From an uncultured Spirochaetota bacterium (GTDB lineage Bacteria > Spirochaetota > Spirochaetia > SZUA-6 > Fen-1364): a stretch of 64,000 nt of DNA. Below the pieces are notes generated by a model that worked only from the letters and a program-made list of their open reading frames with translations, did not search any database and was not told the origin of the DNA. The translations under genes were made by a program, and so were the position numbers. The stretch lies in contig CAVUXE010000099.1 of assembly GCA_963745235.1 (NCBI GenBank), positions 96,001 to 160,000 on the forward strand. Direction: 5' to 3'. This document shows positions 610 to 47,529 of the stretch, one piece after another; the stretch's first letter is position 1; every line of letters begins with the position of its first letter.

Positions 610-2397
610 CTATTTGCCTTCGTGCTGGACGGACCGCATGATCCTGTTGATCTCCTCCAGCGGTGACACCCACTCCCTGAAATGAAGGCTCATTTCCCTG
701 CCGTGTGGTCCGACGAACGGGATCTCCACGCCAAGGCAGTCCTCGATGGGACCGCTCAGCCCGGGGAACATGTCCGCGCGCAAAGGGGTGAACACGTACT
801 TCCCATCCTGGTTCCTTATCTGGGCGATGGAAGAAGGGACGCGCACCAGGAAGATGAGGTACGATGAGAAGCCTCCCCCGACGCTGCGGCCGCCGCCTTT
901 GGGAATCCTGTGGACGTTCCTGAAGCCGACGTGCTGGTTCTGGAGGCTCACGCGCATCTCGATAAGAGGCGCCAGGGTTCCCTGCTGGAGCTCGGACCTG
1001 GGTAGTGACCGCTTGAGGCTCGTCATGGTGGGCCGGACGCGCTTGCGGCCGGGTACCGGGACAGGGGCTTCGCGCTCCAGTGGCGCGCCCGTGAGACGCC
1101 CGGCGGGACCGCCGATGGAGAGGAGCGGGACCCTCTTGCCGAACGCCGGGCGCGCGGCCTGCGCCTCCCGCGCGCCGGACACCCGAGTTTCCGCCTCTTC
1201 AGCAGCCGCCGCTCCTCTTCTCTGCCGAGGCCCGGCTTCACCGGCTGCCGGGAGCACCCGGGCCCGCGCAAAGCCGGTCACCGGAACTTCCTGCATCTTT
1301 TGTCGCAGGAAGAGGAAGAGACGCACCAGGCCATACAGGATTGCAAGGGCAATAAGGATATACACGACGTACAGGAATGTCAGGCGAGGGATGGGAAGAC
1401 CGCCTTTGCCCGTGTAGGTGAATGAGAGAGTTCCCGTAGTGGGCGATATTCGCAGGTCGCCGTCGAAGATCAGCTGAACGTTTGCGGCGTGGTCGCCCGT
1501 GGGGTAGGACAAGGGAAGGCGGATAACGACATCAAGGGGAGCTTCGGCGTTCGGGGCAACGGTGATGGAGACTTTCCTGTCCAGGAGGTCGGTCCCATCG
1601 CTCTGCACGCTGGAAAGCCTGACAATGATGGGCTCCGATTTCCAGTTCTTCACCCGGAATGGAGCGGTAAAACGGTTGCCGACCTTCCCAAGGGCGGGAG
1701 GGAAGATCAGGCTCGGGAAGCCCGTCGTCATGCCCGTCACGGTCTGCTTCTCATTCTTGTGGTACGGCACGATGGGCACGCCCAGGCCCTGGGCCAGGTC
1801 AGGGAGGTAGCTCTTCAACCCTTCCTCTCCCGGGGCAGGCTCGGGCGGGACCTTGAGGATGTTGACCGTCCAGCCCTCTTTCTTCATGGCGGCCGCAACG
1901 TCCGCAACAGCTTTGCGGACATCCGCCTCACTCAGCTTGCTGGTATCGCTTCCGGGAGGGGGGTCGTTGACGCCGTCGGTGATCAGGATGATCTGCTTCG
2001 GATTGGTCTCCGGCAGCTCCTTGGCGTACTTGTACAGGAACTGGAGCGCGGCAGGCAGATCCGTGTACCTGCCCAGCGGGTGCAGGAGGAGGATCCTCCC
2101 GAATGCCCGGTCCACGGCCTCAGAGCTGTTGATCTCCAGGGCGATCTCCACCTCCGGCGTGCTGTCAAAGCTGAGCAGGTGGAATGTGTCTCCCCGGTGC
2201 AGCCGCGTGGCGAGCAGGTCATGGATGAGGTAGTTCATCAGGTCGTCGAAATACGGAAACATGCTGGCCGAGGTGTCAACCATGACGATCAGGTCGATGT
2301 TCTCCGCTGCGGCCGGCATCACGGCAAGGAAGAATGCAAGGACGGCGACAGCGATCAGGAGGGCGCGCGGGGCGCCGTGTCTGCCATTTTTCCTCAT
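610..2397 (-). CDS. vWA (MIDAS) domain membrane protein: signal peptide, vWA, beta-rich domain, TM, cytoplasmic domain
   Basis: Start MRKNG at 2397 overlaps the greA stop (ATGA). MIDAS elements DTSASM, YTD and ITDG. TM segment FLYVVYILIALAILYGLVRLFLFL. Confidence 0.8.
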   Translation of the reverse strand: MRKNGRHGAPRALLIAVAVLAFFLAVMPAAAENIDLIVMVDTSASMFPYFDDLMNYLIHDLLATRLHRGDTFHLLSFDSTPEVEIALEINSSEAVDRAFGRILLLHPLGRYTDLPAALQFLYKYAKELPETNPKQIILITDGVNDPPPGSDTSKLSEADVRKAVADVAAAMKKEGWTVNILKVPPEPAPGEEGLKSYLPDLAQGLGVPIVPYHKNEKQTVTGMTTGFPSLIFPPALGKVGNRFTAPFRVKNWKSEPIIVRLSSVQSDGTDLLDRKVSITVAPNAEAPLDVVIRLPLSYPTGDHAANVQLIFDGDLRISPTTGTLSFTYTGKGGLPIPRLTFLYVVYILIALAILYGLVRLFLFLRQKMQEVPVTGFARARVLPAAGEAGPRQRRGAAAAEEAETRVSGAREAQAARPAFGKRVPLLSIGGPAGRLTGAPLEREAPVPVPGRKRVRPTMTSLKRSLPRSELQQGTLAPLIEMRVSLQNQHVGFRNVHRIPKGGGRSVGGGFSSYLIFLVRVPSSIAQIRNQDGKYVFTPLRADMFPGLSGPIEDCLGVEIPFVGPHGREMSLHFREWVSPLEEINRIMRSVQHEGK

Positions 2398-5093
2398 ATG
2401 TTTTTCAGATCCGCCTTCTCGATGTTCTCGACGATGTAGTGAAACTCGTTCTGGTTGATCGTGAATGCGAACTCTTCTCCCGGCTTGTGAGCCCAGAGCG
2501 CGGCCCCCAGCGGTGAAAGATACGAAATGACGTTCCTGCTCGGATTGGACTCCCACGGGCCCAGGATGACGTATTCTTCGATCTGGCTCGACTTGAGGTT
2601 CTTCAGGCGCGCCCGTGTCCCGAAGGAGATGCTTTCCGTCCTCACCTCGTTCTCGTTGAAGATCTGCGCCTGCTGGACCTCCTCCTTCAGGCGCGACGCG
2701 GTGACCTTGAGCATCTCCTGCTTCTCCAGGGCGGCCTTGTATTCCGCGTTCTCCCGCAGGTCTCCCTTGCTCATGGCCACGCCGATCTCCTTCGAGTTTT
2801 CGGGTATCTCCACGTCGATCACGCGTTTGAGGTCCTGCTGCTTCTTCTCGAAGCTCGCCCTCGTCACGAGGAGCCCCAGGCTGACCTTCTCCACCCCTGG
2901 CTCTCCCAGGAAGTGGAAATCCGGGAATCTCTCCTTGATCCGGTGCTTCAGCTGGATCTTCAGCGACGGGTCGAGCTCCTTGACGTCGTCCACGAGCGTG
3001 AACAAGCGGGTGATCGAATCCCTGTCAGCGGCCATGAGAAACTCCAGGAGCCTGCCCTCCTCAAAGAGGAACTCCTGGATCTGGCGGTTGGCCTTCCTGC
3101 CGACGCTTGCGTTCTGCTTGTTGGCAATATCGCGGAAGGTGATGTCCAGGAGGTGGATCATGCCGATGAAGACCTTCTCCCGTGAGATCGATATGCGCTC
3201 CTCGAGCCAGCGCTCCCGCAGGAGGTTCTTGGCAACCCAGACAAACGCCTCTCTCTGCTCGCGGTACCGGGAGACAACGGAGGAAAGCATGGTGCCCAGG
3301 ACGTCCCACTGCGCGTTTGCCACCAGCTCATCTACAATGAACTTGGATGGGAACATCACGAACAGACGCGTGAAGACGGACGGCCAGTCCGCGATGTTCT
3401 TCTTCACCGCCACCAGGAACTCCTTCTTCAGGTCCGGGTCTTCCAGCCGGGAGAACGTTTCCTCCAGGTTCTCGATCTTCCCGAACAGCTCCTCGAAGGT
3501 CAGCTGCACGCCGGTGGACAGGAAGGGATAGAAGGTGATGATCTTCTGGACCAGCAGCCAGCTTCCGATCACCGTTTCGGAGACCGCCGTATATCCCTTC
3601 AGGAACGACGTGAAGTAGGAGAACATCTCCGTGAACCAGTCAGAGTCCGGCTCCGCTCGTCCGCCCTGGATGTAGTCCTCCATGGTCTTCACCCGCTCGA
3701 AGAAGCCCTTTTCCGCCTTGAACTTGTTGTAGATCTTCTCCTCGAAGGATATCGGCTTGTCGCGCACCACGAACTGGTCCACCTTGTCCGGCAGGTTGCC
3801 GAAGGCGGAATCCTTTTTCAGGATGGAGCGGGCCTCGGTGCTCCATCGAGACCACTCCCCCGCGCCGAGCACGTCCGGAACCAGCTCCGCCTTGATCTTC
3901 TTCATGTCGGCCTGGTTGCCGAAGCTCCGGATGATGGTCCGCAGCGCCCACGCAGGCTCACCCTTGATCTTCTGGGCGAGCTCTTCCTTGGACATGGTCC
4001 TCTTGAGGACCCAGACATGCTCCGCGGAGAGGACCTCCAGGGCGCTCACCGCCATCTTGAGAGACATCTTGTGCTGCGACTTGTTGGAAAAGTCGATGGT
4101 GAAAGTGTCATCCTTGCTTGCCGAGATGCGGCCGATGCCCCACGTGCGGTGAAACACGTAGTTGCCGGTGTCGAAGGCGATGTGCTTCTCGAAATCCGCG
4201 ATAGCTTCATGCACGTTGCGCCAGTTCTGCGTGAGGTTGGAGATCTTTATGTACTCCTCCAGCTGGCTGTGCTTGGCGTATTTCTGCCGGTAGCACTCAA
4301 TGATGTCTTTCCGCGCGGGGCCGTTCTTCGAGTCGTAGGCAAGGATCTTTTTCAGGATCTCTATGGAGGTGTCCCAGTCTTCCTTCTCCTTGTAGTGCGG
4401 GATGAGCGTGCTCAGGAGAGCACCGGCGCGCTCGCCGCTGATTGCCCGCGCAATGCGCCCCTCGATGTGGAAAAAGAAGTCGATGTCTTCCGGGCTCAGG
4501 TGGATGAGCTTGTCCCACAGCTCCTTCACGCTGGCGAACTGTTTCTTGTTGATGAAACGGTGGATCGCCTTCTTGTAGTAGTCAACCGCGGCGGCGAGGT
4601 CCCCGTCCTGCTCCCGCTTTTCTCCGAGGATCTTGACGATGTCCGCTTCCTCGTAGTCCACGCGGATGAGCCGGTCCCACACCTCCAGCTTCTTTGCTTC
4701 GTCAGTGCGGTTTTCGTAGCATTCCCCCAGCGTGCGCAGGGCGTACTTGTTCTCACCGTATTCCAATATTCTTTCGGCCAGGAACTCCACGACGTTCCAC
4801 TTGTGGTTGTCCATGAATATGCTGATCAGCATGATCAGGTTGGTGTCATCCACCAGCTCGCGGGACAGCGCCAGCACGCCGGAGAGGTACAGGGCGATGA
4901 TGGAGTTGCTCGTGTGCTTGAGATGCTCACCGGCGAGCTCCCGCACCTCCTCCGCAATCCCTTCCTCCCGAGCCTGCTCGATGAGCGCGTCAAGGTCCTT
5001 GAAGTTGGTGATCGAGTAGCTGTTCAAAGTCGCACGGGTCCACTTCTCCTCATTGAGAAGGTCAGTAATCGTCTTCAGCAGTTCCGTTGCCAT
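2394..5093 (-). CDS. greA: Transcription elongation factor GreA, long spirochaete form (899 aa)
   Basis: C-terminal GreA motifs GDLRENAEYKAA and ILGPWES..ISYLSPLG, with a long helical N-terminal extension. Confidence 0.92.
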   Translation of the reverse strand: MATELLKTITDLLNEEKWTRATLNSYSITNFKDLDALIEQAREEGIAEEVRELAGEHLKHTSNSIIALYLSGVLALSRELVDDTNLIMLISIFMDNHKWNVVEFLAERILEYGENKYALRTLGECYENRTDEAKKLEVWDRLIRVDYEEADIVKILGEKREQDGDLAAAVDYYKKAIHRFINKKQFASVKELWDKLIHLSPEDIDFFFHIEGRIARAISGERAGALLSTLIPHYKEKEDWDTSIEILKKILAYDSKNGPARKDIIECYRQKYAKHSQLEEYIKISNLTQNWRNVHEAIADFEKHIAFDTGNYVFHRTWGIGRISASKDDTFTIDFSNKSQHKMSLKMAVSALEVLSAEHVWVLKRTMSKEELAQKIKGEPAWALRTIIRSFGNQADMKKIKAELVPDVLGAGEWSRWSTEARSILKKDSAFGNLPDKVDQFVVRDKPISFEEKIYNKFKAEKGFFERVKTMEDYIQGGRAEPDSDWFTEMFSYFTSFLKGYTAVSETVIGSWLLVQKIITFYPFLSTGVQLTFEELFGKIENLEETFSRLEDPDLKKEFLVAVKKNIADWPSVFTRLFVMFPSKFIVDELVANAQWDVLGTMLSSVVSRYREQREAFVWVAKNLLRERWLEERISISREKVFIGMIHLLDITFRDIANKQNASVGRKANRQIQEFLFEEGRLLEFLMAADRDSITRLFTLVDDVKELDPSLKIQLKHRIKERFPDFHFLGEPGVEKVSLGLLVTRASFEKKQQDLKRVIDVEIPENSKEIGVAMSKGDLRENAEYKAALEKQEMLKVTASRLKEEVQQAQIFNENEVRTESISFGTRARLKNLKSSQIEEYVILGPWESNPSRNVISYLSPLGAALWAHKPGEEFAFTINQNEFHYIVENIEKADLKNI

Positions 5094-37324: not shown

Positions 37325-39237
37325 GTGCCGGACAGGAAAAACTACGAGCAGCTTTTCGAGGAAGCGGTCGAGGCGGGGCGGAATCGCGACTATGCGAAGT
37401 CCGTGGAGATCCTTCTTCGGATTGTAGGAAGCACGGACAGGTTCCCTCAAGCGCTGCTCTACCTGGGCCGCAGCTATCATGCCCTGGGAGAGCATGCCCG
37501 CGCGGTCCAGTCCCTGAACTTCTACGTGCAGCAAAGGCCGTCGTCATCCGCGGGGCACTTCTTTCTCGGACGCGCATACATCGGCCTGGAAGCTTTCCCG
37601 TCCGCCATCCGGCACCTTCGCCGCGCCACTGAGCTGAATCCGAAGTTTGCCGCTGCTTTTGGCCTCCTGGGATTCGCGTGGCTGAAAGCCCGCAGGTCCG
37701 AGAAGGCAATCTGGTGCTTCGCGAAGGCGCTGGAGCTTGATCCGAACAATACCCGCCTCCAGGTGGGCTACCTGAACACGGCTCTCGTCCTTGCCATACG
37801 CCTGTTCTACCGGGGTCAGCTTCTGGATTCCGCGAGGCTCTTCAGCGAAGTCCTCGAGCAGCGGCAATCCAGCATCCTCCCCCACCTGTACCTGGCATCG
37901 ATCTACAAGGAGCTGGGAAAAAACAACGCTTCCCTGTACCACATAGACGCGGCCTCGCAGATGTCTCCCGAGGACCCTTTCCTTCATCTCCAGAAGGCGC
38001 TGGTCCTGCTCTCGCAGGACCAGAAAAAGGAGGCCGCGGAGGAGTTGCGCATTGGAACGCAGCTCCTGAAGAGCGCGGTCAGCCCGGAAGGCAACACGAA
38101 GGATGTCCTTCGATTCATCACGGTCAACCTGTTTCGTGAAAAGCGCTACCGGGAGACGATCCTCTACGGAACGCGGCTGCTCAAGGACGACTACGGGGAC
38201 CCTCACCTGCACATGCTCGTCGGTGAGTCCTACCGCAACCTGGGGGACCTGACCAAGGCGAAGAACCACTTTTTGCGCGCCTTGGAGAAGGACAAGGGCT
38301 CTCTCGAGATTCGTTACGGCCTGTTCGCCGTGCTGTGGGACCGCGGCGAGTTCCTGGAGCTCTTGAAGGAAACGGGGCACCTTCTCCAGAAGGATCCCGC
38401 GGATGAGACTGCCCGGTATTTCCACAGCCTCGCCCTCGCCCGCAGCGACGCCGCCCTGGAGCAGGTGCTCGGGGAGCTGCAGCAGCAGGTGCGGGCGCGT
38501 GGGCCGGAGCTCGCCCTCATGGCGGAGCTTGCCGCCGCGTACGTGCGGGCCGGGCTTCCCGAGCTTGCGGAGGGCTGGTACAAGCGCGTCCTTCGGATCT
38601 CCGAGGACGACATGGACGCGCTGCAGGCGCTGGCGGAGATCTACGAGGACATGGGCAAGGCGGAGCTGCAGCGCGACGCCCTCCTCCGCTACCTCATCCT
38701 GGATCCCGACGACAGGCGGCGCGCCGTCAGCTCGTGCGGCTCCTGCTGCGCATGCAGTCCTTCGCGGACGCGGCAGAGCACATTGCGAAGCTCCTTCCCC
38801 TCGAGCCGCGGAATGCAAGGCTGAAATCCACGCTGGCCCTCTGCTACCGGAGGTCCGGGAGGTATGCCGAAGCGCTTGTCATCCTCCGTGACCTGCTCAG
38901 CACGGACCACGACTCCGAAGACCTCATCAAGGCGGCAGTATACTGCCTGGACAAGATCGGGGCGCGGAAGGTCGGCATCAAGGCAATGGAGAGCTTCATG
39001 AAGGAGAACGGCGAGAGCCTTTCCCTCCTGCTCATGCTTGGCGTTCTCCACTACCAGGAGAACACCCTGGAGAAGTCCGCGGAGCTGTTCCGACGAGCTG
39101 TCTCGGTCTCCCCGAAGAGCTGGCGGGCAAACCGCAACCTGGGAATGGTGTATCGCCGGATGGGCAACACGGAGTACGCGGATAAGTTTCTTGCCAAGGC
39201 GGCTTCCCTTCGAAAGGCCGAGGCGGCGGCGCAGTAG
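37325..39237 (+). CDS. Large TPR protein, indel near 38720
   Basis: Many TPRs across ORFs 37325-38824 and 38734-39237; upstream TGC-TATACT extended -10. Confidence 0.82.
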
Positions 39238-39301
39238 CGCGTTGCAAGGCGCCGAAAAGCGTATATACTAGCCATGGAGAACGTTGCGAAGGGAGGATGA
39301 G

Positions 39302-39862
39302 ATGGCCGAGCAGAAGGCCGTGGACCTTTTCAAGGCGTACGCGGAGGGCAAGCTGCCGAGCGACGGAGGGTACATCGTTTCTTCCTTTCTCGATGAGCAC
39401 TCGGCGTATTCCCGCTACGAGGTTATCGCTTACAACGGGGTGAAAAGCATCGTCCTCACGAATGAGGGACTGACCTTTCAGACGGACGGGAACAAGATCT
39501 TCGTCCTTGCCGAGCCGCCGAACTACGCGCAGAAGCACCTCGAACCGTTCCGCAGGACGGCGAAGGATCAGATCCCGCACCGTTTTTCCGAGCTGGACAT
39601 CCTCACGACGAAGAACCAGACCAAGGTCATGGTGAGCAAGAGCCCCCATCATGACGTACGGCTCCTTCACCATCATCAAGCCCGACGGGAGAGAACGTCG
39701 CATTCCTCTTCTACAACCTGCCGGACGTCCTTGAAACCATCGGGAAGTTCTTCTCCACGGCCCTGAACAAGGAGGCCACGGTGGCGAAGGTTGACGCGGA
39801 AAAGGCAGGGGCGCTCGTGGTCGAGGGGCTCAGACAAGTTCACGATCTGGGGAAAGAAATAG
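39302..39862 (+). CDS. Spirochaete conserved hypothetical protein, three +1 indels (~39645, ~39683, ~39836)
   Basis: SD GGAGGA. Corrected reading: MAEQKAVDLF..SKSPIMTYGSFTIIKPTGENVAFLFYNLPD..GLRKFTIWGKK*. Confidence 0.72.
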
Positions 39863-39966: not shown

Positions 39967-42611
39967 CTACTTCCCGTTTCTCTCGATATTCAGCTGCGCG
40001 ATTGCCAGCTTGGAGAGGGGCACCTGGTAGGGCGAGCAGGAAACGTAGTCCAGTCCGGCCTCCATGCAGAACCTGATGTTCTCCGGGATGGCCCCATGCT
40101 CTCCGCAGAGCCCGACCTCCAGGTCCGGCCGCGTCATCTTGCCGCGCTTGACCGCCGTCGCAATCAGCTCCTTCACCTGCGGATTGAGGAGCTGGAAAGG
40201 GTTGCCTTCCAGAAGGTCGAACTGCGTGTAGTCAGGCATGAAGGAGTTGAAGTCGTCCCGCGAGAGTCCGATGGTCGTCTGGGTCAGGTCGTTCGTCCCG
40301 AAGGAGAAGAACTGCGCGTAATGCGCAAGATCTCCCGCCCCAAGAGCCGCGGCGGGCAACTCCACCATGGTGCCGATCTTGTAGGGAACGGTCCGTGCCT
40401 TGAAGCTTTCCCGCACTTCCCGCTCCACGTCCACGAGGCCGCGGATGTGCTTGCCCTCGATCTTCTTGCCGTAGATGATGAGCTTCAGCTCGCTCTCGTT
40501 CATGATGATGGGAATCATGATCTCAGGATCGACCTTGACTCCTTCCTTGCGGAGAGTGTAGACGGCCTCGAAGATCGCGCGCACCTGCATCTCGTAGATC
40601 TCCGGATATGACACCGCGATACGGCAACCCCGGTGCCCCAGCATCGGGTTGAACTCGTGCAGCGCCTCGCTTCGCGCGCGGACTTCCTTCTCCGAAACCC
40701 GATTGGCCCCGGTTTTCCCGGCGTTGAGGTAGTGCATGAACTTGTCGAGCTCCTGATCGTTGTGAGGCAGGAACTCGTGCAACGGGGCATCGAGCAGCCG
40801 GATGATGACCGGGTAGTCCTCCATGATCTTGAACAGCTTGTAAAAGTCCGTTTTCTGCATGGGCAGGAGCTTTGCCAGGGCCTTCCTGCGGTCCTCCACC
40901 GAGTCGGAAAGGACCATCTCTCGGAACACGTTGATCCGCTTCTCCTCGAAGAACATGTGCTCCGTGCGCACCAGCCCGATTCCATGCGCTCCGAACTTTC
41001 GGGCAAGCGCCGCGTCCCGGGGCTTGTCGGAGTTGGCCCGGACGGTGAAGTGGCCAACGAACTTGTCCACGAGCTTCAGGAAGTCAAGCATGCCCGGATT
41101 CCTCGGGGTCCGGCTCGATCAGCTCCGCCTTCCCCAGGTAGAGGGACGGCGCGCCGTAGAAGGGAACGTTGAGAGTGATGTAGTCCCCCTCCTTGATGGT
41201 ATGGCTGCCGATGGTCGCGCTGGTGTCCCTTGATCTTCATTTCCGGCTTCACCAGGGAAACCTTTCCGTACTGCCGGGCGACAACCGAGGCGTGCGCGGA
41301 GTATCCGCCCTCAGAGGAGAGCACTCCCGTGGCCACCTCAATGGCTTTCACGTCCTCCGCAAATGACGCCGGGAGACACAGGATCATCTTGGTGTCCGTG
41401 CCCTTCTGCTGCGCAAGCTTGTGCGCATCCAGGAGCCTTTCCGTGTTGAAGTAGATTCTTCCGATGGCGGCGCCCGGCGCCCCGTGATTCCGCCCGTGAG
41501 GGCGGTCAGCCCCTTCACCGAGGTGTAGTCGATGATGGGGTGGAGGATCTCGTTGAGCTGCCCCGGCTTGATCTTCTTCACGACGTACGCATCATCCACG
41601 ATCTTCCGCCCGTGCAGGTCCAGGAGGAGCCGAATGTCCGCCTGCGTGGACTTTGCCATCACGGATCTCTGGTCGATCAGCCACAGGCGCTTGTTTTCCA
41701 CGGTGAACCGTATGGAACGGGTCTCCTTGAAGTGGTCTTCCACCTTGCGGGCGATCTTCTCCAGCTCATCATGGTAGTTCTTGGCAACCTTGGAGATGTC
41801 CGCTCCGCTGGCGCCAATGGCGTTGAACTTGTTCTGGAAGTATTCCCCCTGGATCTCCTTGTTCCCGGTGACGATGTTGCGCGTAAAGAACTGGCCGTAG
41901 AATGCGTCCTTGCCGTAGTTGCCGTACACCATGGGCTGGATGATCAGCGCGGTGTCCTGCTGGTTCTGATCGTTGATGGCCAGGAGGTGGCTGATCCTCT
42001 TCAGGGCGATCTCCAGCTGGTCGAACGGGTCCTTGAAGAAACCCGGCGGGAAGCATGGCTTTGTAGCGCTCGAGGAACTCCTTGCGCTTTTTGGCGTCCA
42101 TGTCCGAGTCCAGACCCTTGCCGAGGTCCTTGATGGCCTGCTTGATTGTCTTGACGTCTTTCTCTTTCTCCTCCAGCTCGGCGATGGCCAGCTCGATCTC
42201 CAGGTTCCCCATGGTCAGGAACTGCTGCTCGTGCCAGCCGAAGTTCTCCCCCACGTAGCGAACGAACCCGGGAAGCGTCTTGTCGGTCAGGCCGAAATTG
42301 TGCAGCGTGGGATACTGGGCAATCACGAGGTTGGGGCTGATGACGATCTTCACCAGCATCGGGTTGTCGGCGTCTCCGAACGTCTTTCCCGTGAGCTTCG
42401 CCAGCTTGTCGAACCAGGGCCGCAGCGCGGCCCAGATATCGAAATCCTCCAGGTGCATGGCCACATCCGCATCGATGAGGAAACCGGGGAGGATGGGCAG
42501 GTCCAGGTCAGCCAGCTCCATGGCCAGCCGTCCGCGGATCCCGATACGATCCAGGATCTGCGGCTTCAGGTTTGCTTCCCCTTTTGCAAAGAAGTGGATG
42601 TTCTTCTTCAT
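39967..42611 (-). CDS. Pyruvate phosphate dikinase-like PEP-utilising enzyme with degenerate nucleotide-binding domain; indels near 42040, 41480, 41227, 41092
   Basis: PPDK architecture: QPMVYGN, His domain EGGYSAHASVVAR, PEP domain GIGLVRTEHMFF, IRLLD.PLHEF, NPMLGHRGCR, FSFGTNDLTQ and GLCGEHG. Confidence 0.88.
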
Positions 42612-42631: not shown

Positions 42632-43714
42632 CTAGAACAGGTTCAGGACAGCGCCGACCTGTCCCTTGAGGAATGCTTCGAACATGTGGCTGGCGCCCTG
42701 CTTGAGGTAGCGCTGGAGCTTGGCCACGTCCTTGATGTCGTCCCCCGCAATGGCGATCATGATTGCGCTTCCGTGCTTGACCTTCCCCCATTTGAAAAGC
42801 GTGTTGATGTCGTGGATGCGCTCACCCTCGTAGAAGACGTAGACGTCCAGGCCCGGGTACTTGGTCGTGTAACTCTGGATGATCTTCTTCCACGCCTCGA
42901 CGTTTCCGTTATGGAAAAGCTCGTTCGTCACGGGGATGGAGTACATGGGTGTCATCCGTTTGGGAGCCGTGGTAGCGGCCGCAACGACGGGCCTGGCAGC
43001 CACCGGCGCCGCGGCGGCGGCGGTCTGTTGCGCAACGTAGGACTGGAGCGCCGGCGGCATGACGGGGGACGCTGCCGCGGCGGCGGCGGCCGCAAGGTCC
43101 ACCTTCGGTCTGCGCCCGCGCGGCTTCGGACCCCGAGTCGGTGCGGGGGCGGGAAGCATGGGAACCACTTTCTTCAGGGTGAAACTGCCCTTGGTGAATG
43201 CTGAAGGCGTCTTGATCTTCGACCCCTGGAGAATGGACAGGAGCAGGTTGATGCCTTCCTGATATTTCGGGTCACTGTCTGTATCCTGGAAAGCGCCGGC
43301 GAATATCGTTATCAGCTCATTTTTCTTGAGGCCACGGACGCTTTCCCAATGGGCGCGGTTTTTTGGATTGATGGTCATGACGCCCAGCTCTGGATGAAAA
43401 TAGGTCACCACGAGGTCCAGGGCCCGCCATTTTCCGACCTCCGCGGCAAGATAGTCAAAGTTTTCGAAGTTCTCCGTGAGATTGTAGGACCTGCATACGT
43501 AGCCGTACTTGTCCGCCAGGATGGCGCTTACGGCCGGCAGCACCTGGTCGGGCTCGATGGATTTCTCCACGAGGCACGCGCTGATGATCTCCGCCAGGTT
43601 TGTTTTTCTCTCGAAATCCGCAATGACCCGCATGATGAACTTGAAATGGGACAGTGAGCGGTTGAAGCCGGCCCTTGTGCTCAGCTCGTCAAACGCATGG
43701 AGTTGTTCTGCCAT
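42632..43714 (-). CDS. Conserved protein between cfpA and the PPDK-like gene, with a C-terminal HPr-like domain
   Basis: Intact 360-aa ORF with a Pro/Ala linker. Residues ~254-345 align by eye with HPr (VTNELFH; INTLFK; VKHGSAIMIAIAGDD). Confidence 0.75.
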   Translation of the reverse strand: MAEQLHAFDELSTRAGFNRSLSHFKFIMRVIADFERKTNLAEIISACLVEKSIEPDQVLPAVSAILADKYGYVCRSYNLTENFENFDYLAAEVGKWRALDLVVTYFHPELGVMTINPKNRAHWESVRGLKKNELITIFAGAFQDTDSDPKYQEGINLLLSILQGSKIKTPSAFTKGSFTLKKVVPMLPAPAPTRGPKPRGRRPKVDLAAAAAAAASPVMPPALQSYVAQQTAAAAAPVAARPVVAAATTAPKRMTPMYSIPVTNELFHNGNVEAWKKIIQSYTTKYPGLDVYVFYEGERIHDINTLFKWGKVKHGSAIMIAIAGDDIKDVAKLQRYLKQGASHMFEAFLKGQVGAVLNLF

Positions 43715-43763: not shown

Positions 43764-43798
43764 AAATGAAAATGGTGACCCCCGGAGGGGTCACCATT
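43764..43798 (-). terminator. Intrinsic terminator / stabilising hairpin after cfpA
   Basis: Perfect 12-bp stem AATGGTGACCCC-CGGA-GGGGTCACCATT, followed on the minus strand by TTCATTT. Confidence 0.75.
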
Positions 43799-43813: not shown

Positions 43814-45832
43814 TCAGATCTCTCTCAGACCGACGTCCCCGCCCCTGCGCGGACGGCCCCTCCTGCCCGGCTTGCGGCCGCGCCGCGGAGCGACGTCCAC
43901 GACTCCCTGGGATGCCGTCTTGGCATCAGGTCCTGGAACGTTCAGCATATCAAGGTAGTCAGTCTTTTTGCCTTCACCTGCCGCTGCGGCAGTCTCCTCC
44001 GGCTGCGCCGCGAAGGACTGCGCAATGTCAGCGCGCACCGTGGAGCGCCTGCGGGAGAACGACGCGAATGCGGCGTCCTGGAACCCCTTGGATACGCCGT
44101 AGAGGAACTCGTTGAGCACGTTGGCCATGCCGTCCAGCGTCGCCTTCTTCCTCTTGATGGACGTGATGTTCACGTCGAGGAGCAGGCCCGGCTGGATGTG
44201 GTACGGGTTGATCATGTACTCGAACTTGAGGAAGTTGCCTTCCAGGAAAGCAAGCCGCTCCTCCAGGACTCTTCGCTGGATGGGATAACGGAAGCCGTAG
44301 AGCTTCTGCAGCTTGTCCTTCATCAGGATGAGGCGCTTCTTTACCTCGTCCTTCTCCGCGATGTAAGTCCTGTTCATCCGTTCGACGTCGGTATCACCGG
44401 CCCGCACGAACGTTACTTCGCTCCAGCTCTTCTCGATGTCCTCGTAGAGGGGATCCCCCGTCTTTGCCTTGATCCGCCTCTTGATCTTCCCGCGCATCTT
44501 CTTGGCAAGGTCGTTGAAGTCTACAACGCCCTTCAGGAACTTGGAGTCCTCATACACCATTTCGAGGATGTCCCATGCATGCTGCATTTCCACCTCGAAG
44601 CTCTTGGCCTGCACGTCGTACGACTTGCGCTCTTCCAGGAGCTGCGCCTGGTCGTAGTATTTCAGGCGGATTGCGTAGCGCTCATCAGGCAGGTGAGCTT
44701 CATCCGTGTCCTCATACTCGCGAAGGACCAGCTCGCGCGCGTTCTTGAGGTTTTCAACGTGCTGGTAGCCCATCTTGGAGGTGTCCAGGATGGAGGTGAT
44801 GGAGTTGATGGCAGTGTTGAACCCGCGGTTCCTGATGTTCTCCAGGTCGACGATTCGCTTCAGGTTCTCACGGATATTCACCGCGTCATACTCTTCCGGG
44901 TCGATCTCCGCGCGCAGGCCCTCGATCTTGTCCATGAGGCTCTTGGCAAAGTATGAGTACCTCTTGGACTTGGGGTCGTCCTTGTCGTCCGAGGTGAACT
45001 TCTCAACCCTCTTCATCTTCTCGAAGAGGATCTCTCCGTCGTTCAGCTCTTCCCGGCCCTCATCGATGACCTGATCCTTGAGCTTCTCGATCTCCTTGTC
45101 GATGAGGTCCATGATGTTCTTGGAGATGAGGTCCTTGATCAGGAACTCCACCGTGACCTGGTAGTGGAAGATGGGGCTGATGAGCTCCGAGTCCAGGATG
45201 TTGACCGAGAGCTTCACGTCCGTGACGGTCTTGGGCTTGTAGGCGCTGTCCTTGAAGGAGCACTTCACGATGGAGTACGCGTTCTCACCGCTGATGAACG
45301 CGCCGACATCCGTCTTCTGGCGCAGCAGGGAGTTGGTGAGGTTCTCCAGGTCGTTGACGCCGCGCTGGATGTGGCCCTGCAGGTGTCCGTACATGTTGAC
45401 GATGGATTTCTCGATCTCACCCGTGTTGAACTTGTCGATGCCGCCGATCTGGTCCAGCATGGCCGCGATCTCCTTCGGGGTGTAGCGGGCGAGGGACTTC
45501 ATCTCTTCCTTGTCGATGAAGTTCCTCACCTTCTTCACCATCTCGTCTTCCGAGGTGACCATGAAGCGGTTGAACATGTTCTGATAGTTCTGGTTGAAGT
45601 AGTTGTAGAGCTTCTCCTTGAAGCCACCCATGACGTCGAGCTTCTCGGTGACTTCCTTGGGCAGCTTGGAGGTGATATGATTCATCACCTTGTCGACTTC
45701 TTCGCTCATGAGCAGGTCGACTTCCGCCTGCTGATCCCGGAACTCCTGCGCGAGCGAGTTCCTGGAACCGACGGCGCTCGGCTTTTCCGGATGGAACACA
45801 TTCGGGCTTTTCGGAAGGTCAATAGCAGCCAT
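43814..45832 (-). CDS. cfpA: Cytoplasmic filament protein A
   Basis: N-terminus [25 protein letters not shown] and internal [22 protein letters not shown] and [21 protein letters not shown] match treponemal CfpA as recalled; 672 aa; SD AAGGAG. Confidence 0.93.
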
Positions 45833-45985: not shown

Positions 45986-47529
45986 ATGAGTATTCGCAGA
46001 AGCCTTCCCGCGGCTTTGGTGGTGTGCCTCATTCTGGCGTCCCCTCTGCTTGCCGACACGCGGACGCAGAACATCGACATCATGATCGCCCTCGACAAGT
46101 CACTTTCCATGGAACATAAGATCGCCGCTGTCAAGGATTGGGTCAACTCATATCTGATCGACCAGGTGGTCATCCCGGGAGACTTCCTCGTCATCGTGGC
46201 GTTCTACGGGAAGGCGGACGTCATCGTGTCACAGGTCATCAAGGATGACGCCGACAGAGCGGCAGTGAAGAAGATCATTTCCGGGATTAGAGGGAATGGA
46301 AGGTTCACAGATATTGGCAACGCCCTGGATGTTTTGAAAGCGCAGATCGCGGAGAAGGAGAAGCGACGGTAGAGACAAGTACGTCCTCCTCCTGACGGAC
46401 GGGATCCAGGAAGCGCCGCCAACGAGCAAGTACTACTCCACGGACGGAAAGTTCAACCACGAGTTCCTCGCCAACACGAAGACCATCCAGGAGAAAGGCT
46501 GGAAGGTCATGATACTGGGGATCGGAACAGAGACCGCCGCAAAGGACCTGGCGACAACGGTCTCCGGTTCCTACACCGAGATCACCGGCAAGGTGAGCCG
46601 GGGGGCCCTCACCCAGTCCGCCGGCGGCCTGTTCGGCGCCGTGGCGCTCAAGGGCGGGGTCCAGGTGGCGCCCGTGGGCCCTGACGGGAGCAGCTCCCTT
46701 GCCTTCACGTTGAAGCCCTCGCTGCAGGGAGACACAAGCATCACGATCAACAGGATAGATGCCCGAATCGGGAACGCCCCTCCGTCCCCTGTGCTCTCCA
46801 CGCCCATGACCATTGCGGTCAAGAAAGGCGCTGATCAGGCGGCCAAGGTGGCGGTAAGGTTCCCTGCGGGCCTGCCCGGCAGGCTCCACCAAGGGCACGC
46901 TTTCATTTTCCTTCCCTCCCGGCCAGGGCTTCAGCCCTTCGGATGTCGAAGTGTCCATCCCTGTGAAAGGTTGGGCTGAAAACAACGAGATCCCGCTTGG
47001 CGCCGCCCTGGTCCTGGTAATCATCGTGATCGTCGCCCTGGTCCTTCTGCTCCGCAGGGTGTCAACGGGAGGAGCACTGTCCTTCGTCGTTCTGGTGGAC
47101 GACTCTCCTCTCAGCGAGGCTCCGGTGAGCCTGGCCTCGGGGCGCGAGCTTTTCCTGAATGAGCTGGAAGGATCTTTCAGTCTCGTCCCCAGGCGGAATG
47201 CCCGTTCACTCGCCCGATTCTTCGTCAAGGACAAGAAGCTCGGCATGGGCGTCCTGAAAACGGACAGGTTCCCGAAGCTGGCCGACGTGCCCGGGGACAT
47301 CCGGGGGGAATCATTTGTCCTGAAGGCGGAGGACGGAAGAAAGCTTGACCTGGAGATACAGGGCAAGTCCGCTGCCGGGGCAGCGCGGACAGGCGATATC
47401 CCCGCCCGGGAAGGCCGGTCCGCGGAGACTGCCTCCAAGCCAGCGCCCGAGCCCGCAGAACGCCCGGCGGCGAAACGAACCCCCCGGGCAACGGCGCCCG
47501 CGGCCAGGCCCAGGAAGAGGGCGAAGTAG
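45986..47529 (+). CDS. vWA (MIDAS) domain membrane protein, TP0750-like; indels near 46365 and 46870-46950
   Basis: Signal peptide, DKSLSM, FTDIGNALD, then LLLTDGIQEAPP in the shifted frame; TM LGAALVLVIIVIVALVLLL. Confidence 0.75.

Follow-up and report, generated by a model that had tools for sequence, protein, structure and literature searches.

A sequence-only reading of a 64,000-nucleotide (nt) stretch of DNA from an uncultured Spirochaetota bacterium (GenBank assembly GCA_963745235.1, contig CAVUXE010000099.1, positions 96,001 to 160,000; this whole stretch is called the window below) proposed that a hidden HPr-like domain, possibly two in tandem, lies in the gene downstream of cfpA. HPr is among the best-studied bacterial signalling and transport proteins. 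We examined the open reading frame (ORF) in question by homology search, structure prediction and profile comparison, together with its neighbours and with related loci from other genomes. The 360-residue product is, in our judgement, quite likely a member of the TP_0747 family that ends in a very divergent HPr-type domain of ~107 residues. Its gene stands next to one for a phosphoenolpyruvate (PEP)-utilising enzyme related to pyruvate phosphate dikinase (PPDK), and it is this pairing that gives the domain its wider interest.

A spirochaete gene family between cfpA and a PPDK-like gene

The ORF was found where the sequence-only reading had placed it, downstream of cfpA; it lies on the minus strand and encodes 360 residues. 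The genes around it, and a hairpin that separates it from cfpA, are as follows.

43814..45832, minus strand: cfpA, cytoplasmic filament protein A, 672 amino acids (aa); NCBIfam NF040882 at 1166 bits against a cut-off of 500
about 43764..43798, minus strand: terminator-like hairpin between cfpA and the ORF, with a 9-bp G+C-rich stem, a 4-nt loop and a T-rich tail
42632..43714, minus strand: TP_0747-family ORF, 360 aa; N-terminal domain, disordered linker and C-terminal predicted HPr-fold domain
39967..42611, minus strand: PPDK-like PEP-utilising enzyme gene, with Pfam families PEP-utilizers and PEP-utilizers_C; in four frames in the window

The ORF is intact, with relatives 85-91% identical aligning at 100% coverage. 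Compared with local Pfam and NCBIfam libraries, its product gave nothing above noise. A wider search scored 8000 candidates and returned 3085 homologues at E<=0.001. Among the 120 matches listed, all carried the precomputed family PF27497.1, came from Spirochaetia bins and were unnamed or labelled 'hypothetical', and none carried a precomputed Pfam family besides PF27497.1. In ESM Atlas output PF27497 bears the name TP_0747_N, which implies a model of the N-terminal part of the protein; membership of our ORF is assigned by proxy, through the homologues that are 85-91% identical to it over their full length. A profile search of 1.84 billion cluster representatives recovered 209 clusters at E<=0.001, and the family is therefore narrow. 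A scan of one genome per species gave 570 or more stretches coding for a relative, from which 80 related loci were kept; all locus comparisons below refer to these, and all 80 are of Spirochaetota origin. The TP_0747 family is catalogued but uncharacterised, and the 360-aa protein is a typical member. Literature searches for TP0747, TP_0747 and PF27497 found no paper on the family, and the papers listed by a search on CfpA, spirochete and cryo were not about a TP_0747-family protein.

Gene order at the locus is strongly conserved. The PPDK-like gene lies downstream of the TP_0747-family gene in every one of the 80 loci, at a median gap of 21 nt (n=70; 20 nt in the window). Upstream, cfpA is present in 73 loci, the contig ending first in the other seven, and its stop codon precedes the family gene by a median of 72 nt (n=73; 99 nt in the window). 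The order cfpA, TP_0747-family gene, dikinase-like gene also matches the gene numbering of Treponema pallidum, TP0748, TP0747 and TP0746.

The interval between cfpA and the family gene regularly holds a hairpin. A structure with a folding free energy (dG) of -10 kcal/mol or lower occurs no more than 110 nt past the cfpA stop in 64 of 65 loci, 52 of these with a T-rich tail, and a control scan past the stop of the TP_0747-family ORF itself found a hairpin in 9 of 70. Its position after cfpA is kept across loci and its sequence differs; the window copy, with stem and loop at about 43774-43795, was not listed by a simple terminator scanner. The hairpin past cfpA, taken with the short gap on the other side, indicates that the ORF and the enzyme gene form a tight pair, whose expression probably depends on read-through and is lower than that of cfpA.

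The C-terminal domain and its likeness to HPr

An AlphaFold2 (AF2) model of the full-length protein (mean predicted local distance difference test score, pLDDT, 68), read together with the family alignments, divides the protein into three parts. The coordinates of these, and of the segments discussed below, are as follows.

42635..42955, minus strand: C-terminal predicted HPr-fold domain (C-domain), residues 254-360, from AF2 model, Foldseek and hhalign; hyper-conserved
42887..42925, minus strand: near-invariant block N264-K276, containing His268
42911-42913, minus strand: codon of His268, the residue directly before helix 1 (269-285) and by topology the equivalent of HPr His15
42956..43159, minus strand: Pro/Ala-rich disordered linker, residues 186-253, basic at its start
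43160..43714, minus strand: N-terminal domain (N-domain), residues 1-185; four helices, then a beta-alpha-beta-beta-alpha-beta-alpha unit (residues 73-162)

Modelled alone from a 74-row alignment, the C-domain reached a pLDDT of 92.1 and a predicted template modelling score (pTM) of 0.87. Its elements are strand 1 at 258-261, helix 1, strand 2 at 290-295, strand 3 at 298-300, helix 2 at 303-307, strand 4 at 317-323 and helix 3 at 330-340, followed by an extra helix 4 at 343-348. In this predicted structure the order up to helix 3, beta-alpha-beta-beta-alpha-beta-alpha, is that of HPr. When the model was compared with PDB structures by Foldseek, HPr and its paralogue Crh made up most of the best matches, with probabilities of up to 0.99, target-normalised template modelling (TM) scores of 0.49-0.64 and root-mean-square deviations (rmsd) of 3.1-5.8. 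The full-length model likewise gave HPr as its top matches; there the row for 1ptf was close to that of the C-domain run, and the rows for 1cm3 and 1opd differed, so either domain may have produced these matches.

Profile comparison picked out the same region. We aligned the C-domain profile by hhalign with a diverse HPr profile built from 18 sequences (E. coli ptsH, 12 plasmid-borne HPr genes and five others) and obtained a score of 32.5 (Prob 80%, P 1.4e-5), which none of 60 column-shuffled controls reached (mean 10.6, maximum 16.8). A profile of the whole protein selected the same C-domain stretch (Prob 52.9%, P 1.4e-4). With a narrow enterobacterial HPr profile (Neff 1.7) the match amounted to only P 0.036 and Prob 1.4%, and global-mode hhalign gave meaningless end-to-end overlaps (Prob 0.1). 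The profile match to HPr is collinear with the fold match. On the predicted model, then, the C-domain very probably has an HPr-type fold, and it is probably a remote homologue of HPr. For the hidden HPr-like domain that the sequence-only reading had drawn at about residues 254-345, the predicted fold and, to a moderate degree, the profile-profile similarity (Prob 53-80%) support the proposal; pairwise sequence similarity does not.

That last result is one of several that weigh against homology to HPr. A Smith-Waterman alignment of residues 252-350 with E. coli HPr scored 27 (z 0.95), and as 88 of 500 shuffles reached this score, pairwise similarity is at chance. The HPr family model PF00381, a hidden Markov model (HMM), matched neither the window protein nor any of 38 members at E<=10, in agreement with the suggestion that standard HPr HMMs could miss the domain, and PDB sequence and profile searches returned no HPr at E<=10. 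The Foldseek E-values are only 0.02-0.1, with no match at E<=0.001, and the C-domain matches also include MoaE, RCK-type domains and a mutase domain. Moreover, the confident part of the profile alignment is confined to residues 288-339 against HPr 30-83, a stretch running from strand 2 through helix 3; it takes a greedy, low-confidence mode to align strand 1, the His loop and helix 1 as well. Apart from the family of the protein itself, an ESM Atlas search with residues 252-360 found a single unnamed cluster, below 0.9.

A ubiquitin-like beta-grasp was also considered. The matches were weak: PF00240 hit 9 of 38 members, with a best E of 0.085, and a single PDB chain came up at E 2.4. We rejected this reading because the fold search with the C-domain lists no ubiquitin-family structure.

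Within the family the C-domain is by far the most constrained part of the protein, the mean frequency of the top residue being 0.65 there, as against 0.39 in the N-domain and 0.27 in the linker. It is 50-76% identical in cluster representatives whose N-domains are 15-45% identical to that of the window protein. Against one close relative (locus L002) the 111 codons compared hold 31 silent changes and 3 amino-acid changes, and nine other loci are similar; silent changes far outnumber replacements, so constraint acts on the protein and this is real coding sequence. In more distant loci the C-domain is 74-86% identical, compared with 71-84% for CfpA. Such conservation also counts against a simple carrier function, in that the whole C-domain is far more conserved than a carrier active site alone would need.

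The sequence-only reading had singled out His268 as the counterpart of the phosphorylated His15 of HPr, and its place in the model agrees: the residue stands directly before helix 1 and pairs with H15 in both collinear alignments, within their low-confidence part. Of 68 representatives 65 carry His at this position, as do 212 of 215 family proteins that have the motif. As a point on the other side, Ser, Gln and Asn each replace the histidine once among the 68. These three members (P0161, P0176 and P0193) also show decay of the surrounding motif and a lower C-domain identity of 38-51%, and they may be a Crh-like offshoot.

Conservation of His268 across orthologues was thus found as anticipated, yet its neighbours are equally conserved. 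The two most conserved blocks of the C-domain are 264-276, comprising the His loop and the start of helix 1, and 304-311, comprising helix 2 and the loop after it, with near-invariance in N304-K311 as well. Because the whole of block 264-276 is near-invariant, conservation of His268 alone does not single this residue out. The helix-1 and helix-2 regions are the face by which HPr meets its partners.

Next to the histidine the family departs from HPr. Where HPr has H-x-R-P, the C-domain has H-N-G-N: of the 68 representatives, 65 have Gly at position 270 and all have Asn at position 271, so the replacement of Arg17-Pro18 by Gly-Asn noted from the window holds for the family. It counts against an HPr-type acceptor, Arg17 being invariant in the 18 HPr sequences. 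The proposed equivalence of Thr305 with the regulatory Ser46 did not survive. One alignment places Ser46 opposite T305, another opposite I303, and position 305 is mixed (Ser in 29, Ala in 20 and Thr in 17 of 68).

The N-domain is well modelled at residues about 9-165 (pLDDT about 79-94 per block). Its strands (E) and helices (H) from residue 73 on are E73-78, H86-93, E100-107, E111-115, H120-124, E134-140 and H149-162, the element order of HPr, and residues 72-164 (43223-43501) had been suggested as a second, His-less HPr fold. Against the HPr profile the N-domain gave P 0.03, a score reached by 2 of 60 shuffled controls and hence at chance level. Between representatives the N-domain is as little as 15-30% identical. 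Comparison of the C-domain and N-domain profiles gave P 0.09, so there is no sign of internal duplication. An ESM Atlas search with residues 66-170 gave nothing usable.

Between the two folded parts the linker is modelled with a pLDDT of 31-37 across residues 191-250, and its length and sequence vary in the family. A long Pro/Ala linker is therefore present as described from the sequence, with its basic residues at the start. An AT-hook in the linker was rejected as a family feature, the strict RGRP core occurring in 20 of 190 members and a loose pattern in 48 of 190.

Set beside HPr, Crh and NPr (PF00381), the C-domain shares the predicted fold and element order, profile similarity from strand 2 to helix 3, a histidine directly before helix 1, and a gene that adjoins one for a PEP-utilising enzyme with a swivelling His domain. 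It differs in having no PF00381 match, no invariant Arg and no conserved equivalent of Ser46, in a helix 1 about 5 residues longer, and in the extra C-terminal helix and tail (343-360). Whereas HPr stands alone, the C-domain is fused behind a domain of 185 aa and a linker of ~68 aa, and it is far more conserved than HPr is over comparable distances.

The PPDK-like enzyme and a possible phosphorelay

The window copy of the enzyme gene is broken by four single-base insertions or deletions relative to locus L005, near 42044, 41480, 41225 and 41097. Most related loci have intact ORFs of 877-893 aa, including 880 aa in both L005 and L002. The protein aligns end to end, at equal length, with the solved PPDKs 1dik and 1vbg (510 bits), and it shares with them an invariant catalytic His, found in 56 of 56 family members, and invariant PEP/pyruvate motifs in the PEP domain. 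In other respects it departs from PPDK. Its score against the PPDK equivalog TIGR01828 is 665.1 bits, below the cut-off of 843.45. At E<=0.001 it matches only the two Pfam families listed above and no N-terminal nucleotide-domain family.

We compared nucleotide-domain positions that are identical in the clostridial (1dik) and maize (1vbg) enzymes across the 56 family members, using C. symbiosum numbering. Shared nucleotide-site residues are replaced in 55-56 of the 56: K22 by Arg (56), R92 by Val (55), M103 by Tyr (56), E323 by Arg with reversal of charge (55) and Q335 by Asp or Glu (56). D321 is never Asp and is Ser in 43 of 56, and E279/D280 are lost as well. R337 is kept in 54 of 56, and several ATP-grasp framework motifs are kept too. 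The replaced positions presumably make up the ATP-grasp active site, as mutagenesis work on the clostridial PPDK is reported to show. The N-domain of the enzyme retains many invariant residues and therefore looks re-purposed rather than decaying.

An enzyme that keeps its catalytic His and PEP domain and has replaced its nucleotide residues could charge itself from PEP, and would then need another acceptor. On this basis we tentatively propose, at somewhat short of an even chance, that the C-domain is the phosphoryl acceptor, or at least a docking partner, of the PPDK-like enzyme; phosphotransfer, its direction and anchoring are what we infer. The enzyme would charge its own catalytic histidine from PEP, as enzyme I of the phosphotransferase system (PTS) does, and with its nucleotide site remodelled it would require an acceptor other than AMP and pyrophosphate (PPi). 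The phosphoryl group would be received by His268, which stands ahead of helix 1 in the best-conserved block of the domain. The N-terminal domain would serve as an anchor, held perhaps by the CfpA filament or by the enzyme itself, and the Ala/Pro-rich linker as a flexible arm on which the small domain swings.

By analogy, the proposed logic is that of the enzyme I/HPr pair, in which phosphate passes from PEP to a histidine on a swivelling domain and on to a histidine on an HPr-fold protein encoded next door; the PPDK-like enzyme shares the His domain and PEP-binding domain of enzyme I, and TIGR01417 matches its residues 651-876 (E 4.7e-31). It differs from enzyme I in its PPDK architecture and its remodelled N-terminal ATP-grasp domain, and a scan of 36 ORFs of the window turned up no PTS permease and no other gene of the PTS.

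Some findings tell against a relay of this kind. The enzyme has the length of an ordinary PPDK (880 against 874 aa) and thus has no inserted helical subdomain like that of enzyme I. It is via this inserted subdomain that enzyme I binds HPr. A weak point in the same direction is that no fused or longer form was found among 8000 scored candidates of 631-2000 aa. Co-folding of the intact PPDK-like protein with the C-domain scored 0.00 in both runs, which were made without controls, and so speaks neither for nor against binding. Finally, in print the dikinase of T. pallidum is TP0746, and this homologue is treated as a working glycolytic PPDK, with the wording 'most likely'.

The last point leads to a reading in which the enzyme is a divergent but working dikinase, and the TP_0747-family protein modulates it, for instance by binding or by accepting phosphate reversibly as a sensor of the PEP/pyruvate ratio, without being an obligatory acceptor. 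The enzyme's full-length alignment to solved PPDKs, its retention of R337 and of several ATP-grasp framework motifs, its N-domain that is not decaying, and that description of the T. pallidum enzyme would all fit. We nevertheless consider it quite improbable: the charge reversal at E323 together with the loss of R92, D321, E279/D280 and Q335 is hard to square with canonical Mg-nucleotide chemistry, if these residues have their presumed roles, and the enzyme falls below the equivalog cut-off for PPDK. Nor do we give much credence to the view that the C-domain is unrelated to HPr, having converged on a common two-layer alpha/beta sandwich and kept its histidine for structure. The Foldseek E-values, with MoaE, RCK-C and a mutase domain scoring similarly, allow it, as do the lack of HMM-level similarity to HPr, a His loop outside the region of profile similarity and the equal conservation of every residue around H268. 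Convergence sits poorly, however, with a profile-profile score far above all 60 shuffles and collinear with the fold match, with two independent models whose top Foldseek ranks are mostly HPr-family entries, and with a neighbouring enzyme from the very superfamily that phosphorylates HPr.

An HPr-type fold could instead have been reused purely for binding, with no phosphotransfer. Crh and Ser-P-HPr act by binding regulators, and a non-catalytic adaptor of this sort might tether the enzyme or another partner to the CfpA ribbon, or regulate assembly of the filament. The order cfpA, TP_0747-family gene, PPDK-like gene in every locus that reaches far enough is what such an adaptor would lead one to expect, as is a family confined to Spirochaetota records in all 80 kept loci. 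Conservation of the C-domain over its whole length, near the level of CfpA, fits burial in conserved contacts. The HPr Arg is absent from the active-site loop, and two folded domains on a long flexible linker are a typical tether architecture. The hairpin past cfpA and the 21-nt gap, on the other hand, tie the gene more to the enzyme than to cfpA, and a purely binding role leaves unexplained both the remodelled nucleotide site beside an invariant catalytic His and a histidine kept exactly at the carrier position. We regard an adaptor as possible, if doubtful.

Were the C-domain indeed the acceptor, a broader picture could be drawn, which we think unlikely as a whole and offer as speculation. 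Spirochaetes that carry cfpA, the family of the syphilis agent included, would run a hitherto unseen two-protein phosphorelay in which a PPDK-derived, nucleotide-independent 'enzyme I' passes phosphate to His268 of a tethered HPr-type domain, and the relay may tie to the filament and so couple glycolytic state to the cytoskeleton or to cell division. If this were true, what is annotated in treponemes as the glycolytic PPDK gene would not encode a PPDK in the usual sense.

The HPr reading of the C-domain and the degenerate nucleotide site of the neighbouring enzyme appear to be new; in our literature searches we found no paper that draws such a link between an HPr-like protein and a dikinase. 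A divergent copy of HPr that every family HMM misses, fused within a conserved protein found only in spirochaetes, would widen the HPr family. The pairing matters more: a predicted HPr-fold domain that has its histidine in place, with the gene of a PEP-utilising enzyme only 20 nt away, could lead to a new phosphorelay and could change the reading of the last step of glycolysis in treponemes, where the enzyme is taken to make ATP. To our knowledge the CfpA filament has no known partners, and these results would provide a first functional handle on the gene that adjoins cfpA.

Other genes of the window

The PPDK-like gene (39967-42611, minus strand) is not the only frameshifted gene in the window. 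A VWA-domain gene (45986-47529, plus strand) is spread over three frames and a TPR gene (37325-39237, plus strand) over two, with cfpA and the 360-aa ORF intact. The related loci L003, L004, L014, L018 and L020 are fragmented likewise, and the broken frames look more like assembly error than pseudogenes.

Two further genes extend the neighbourhood. Wherever the contig reaches, the VWA-domain gene (513 aa when intact, in L002) lies divergently upstream of cfpA and is part of the conserved neighbourhood. On the other side, convergent with the PPDK-like gene, is a small ORF (39284-39766, plus strand in the window) with no Pfam or NCBIfam match; it is present in most loci at about 120-185 aa and 34-95% identity and is followed by the TPR-repeat gene.

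Farther away, an ORF of 899 aa (2394-5093, minus strand) has GreA/GreB domains only in its last ~160 residues (742-892), the preceding ~740 residues having no Pfam match at E<=1e-5.

CfpA itself ends in a disordered C-terminal tail (43814-44020 in the window, minus strand). Of 65 full-length relatives, 46 have AT-hook-like RGRP cores in this tail, some of them with several copies, and the tail closes with a conserved short motif of the G-L-K/R-E-I type. Judged from these motifs, the tail might act as a docking peptide or connect the filament with DNA.

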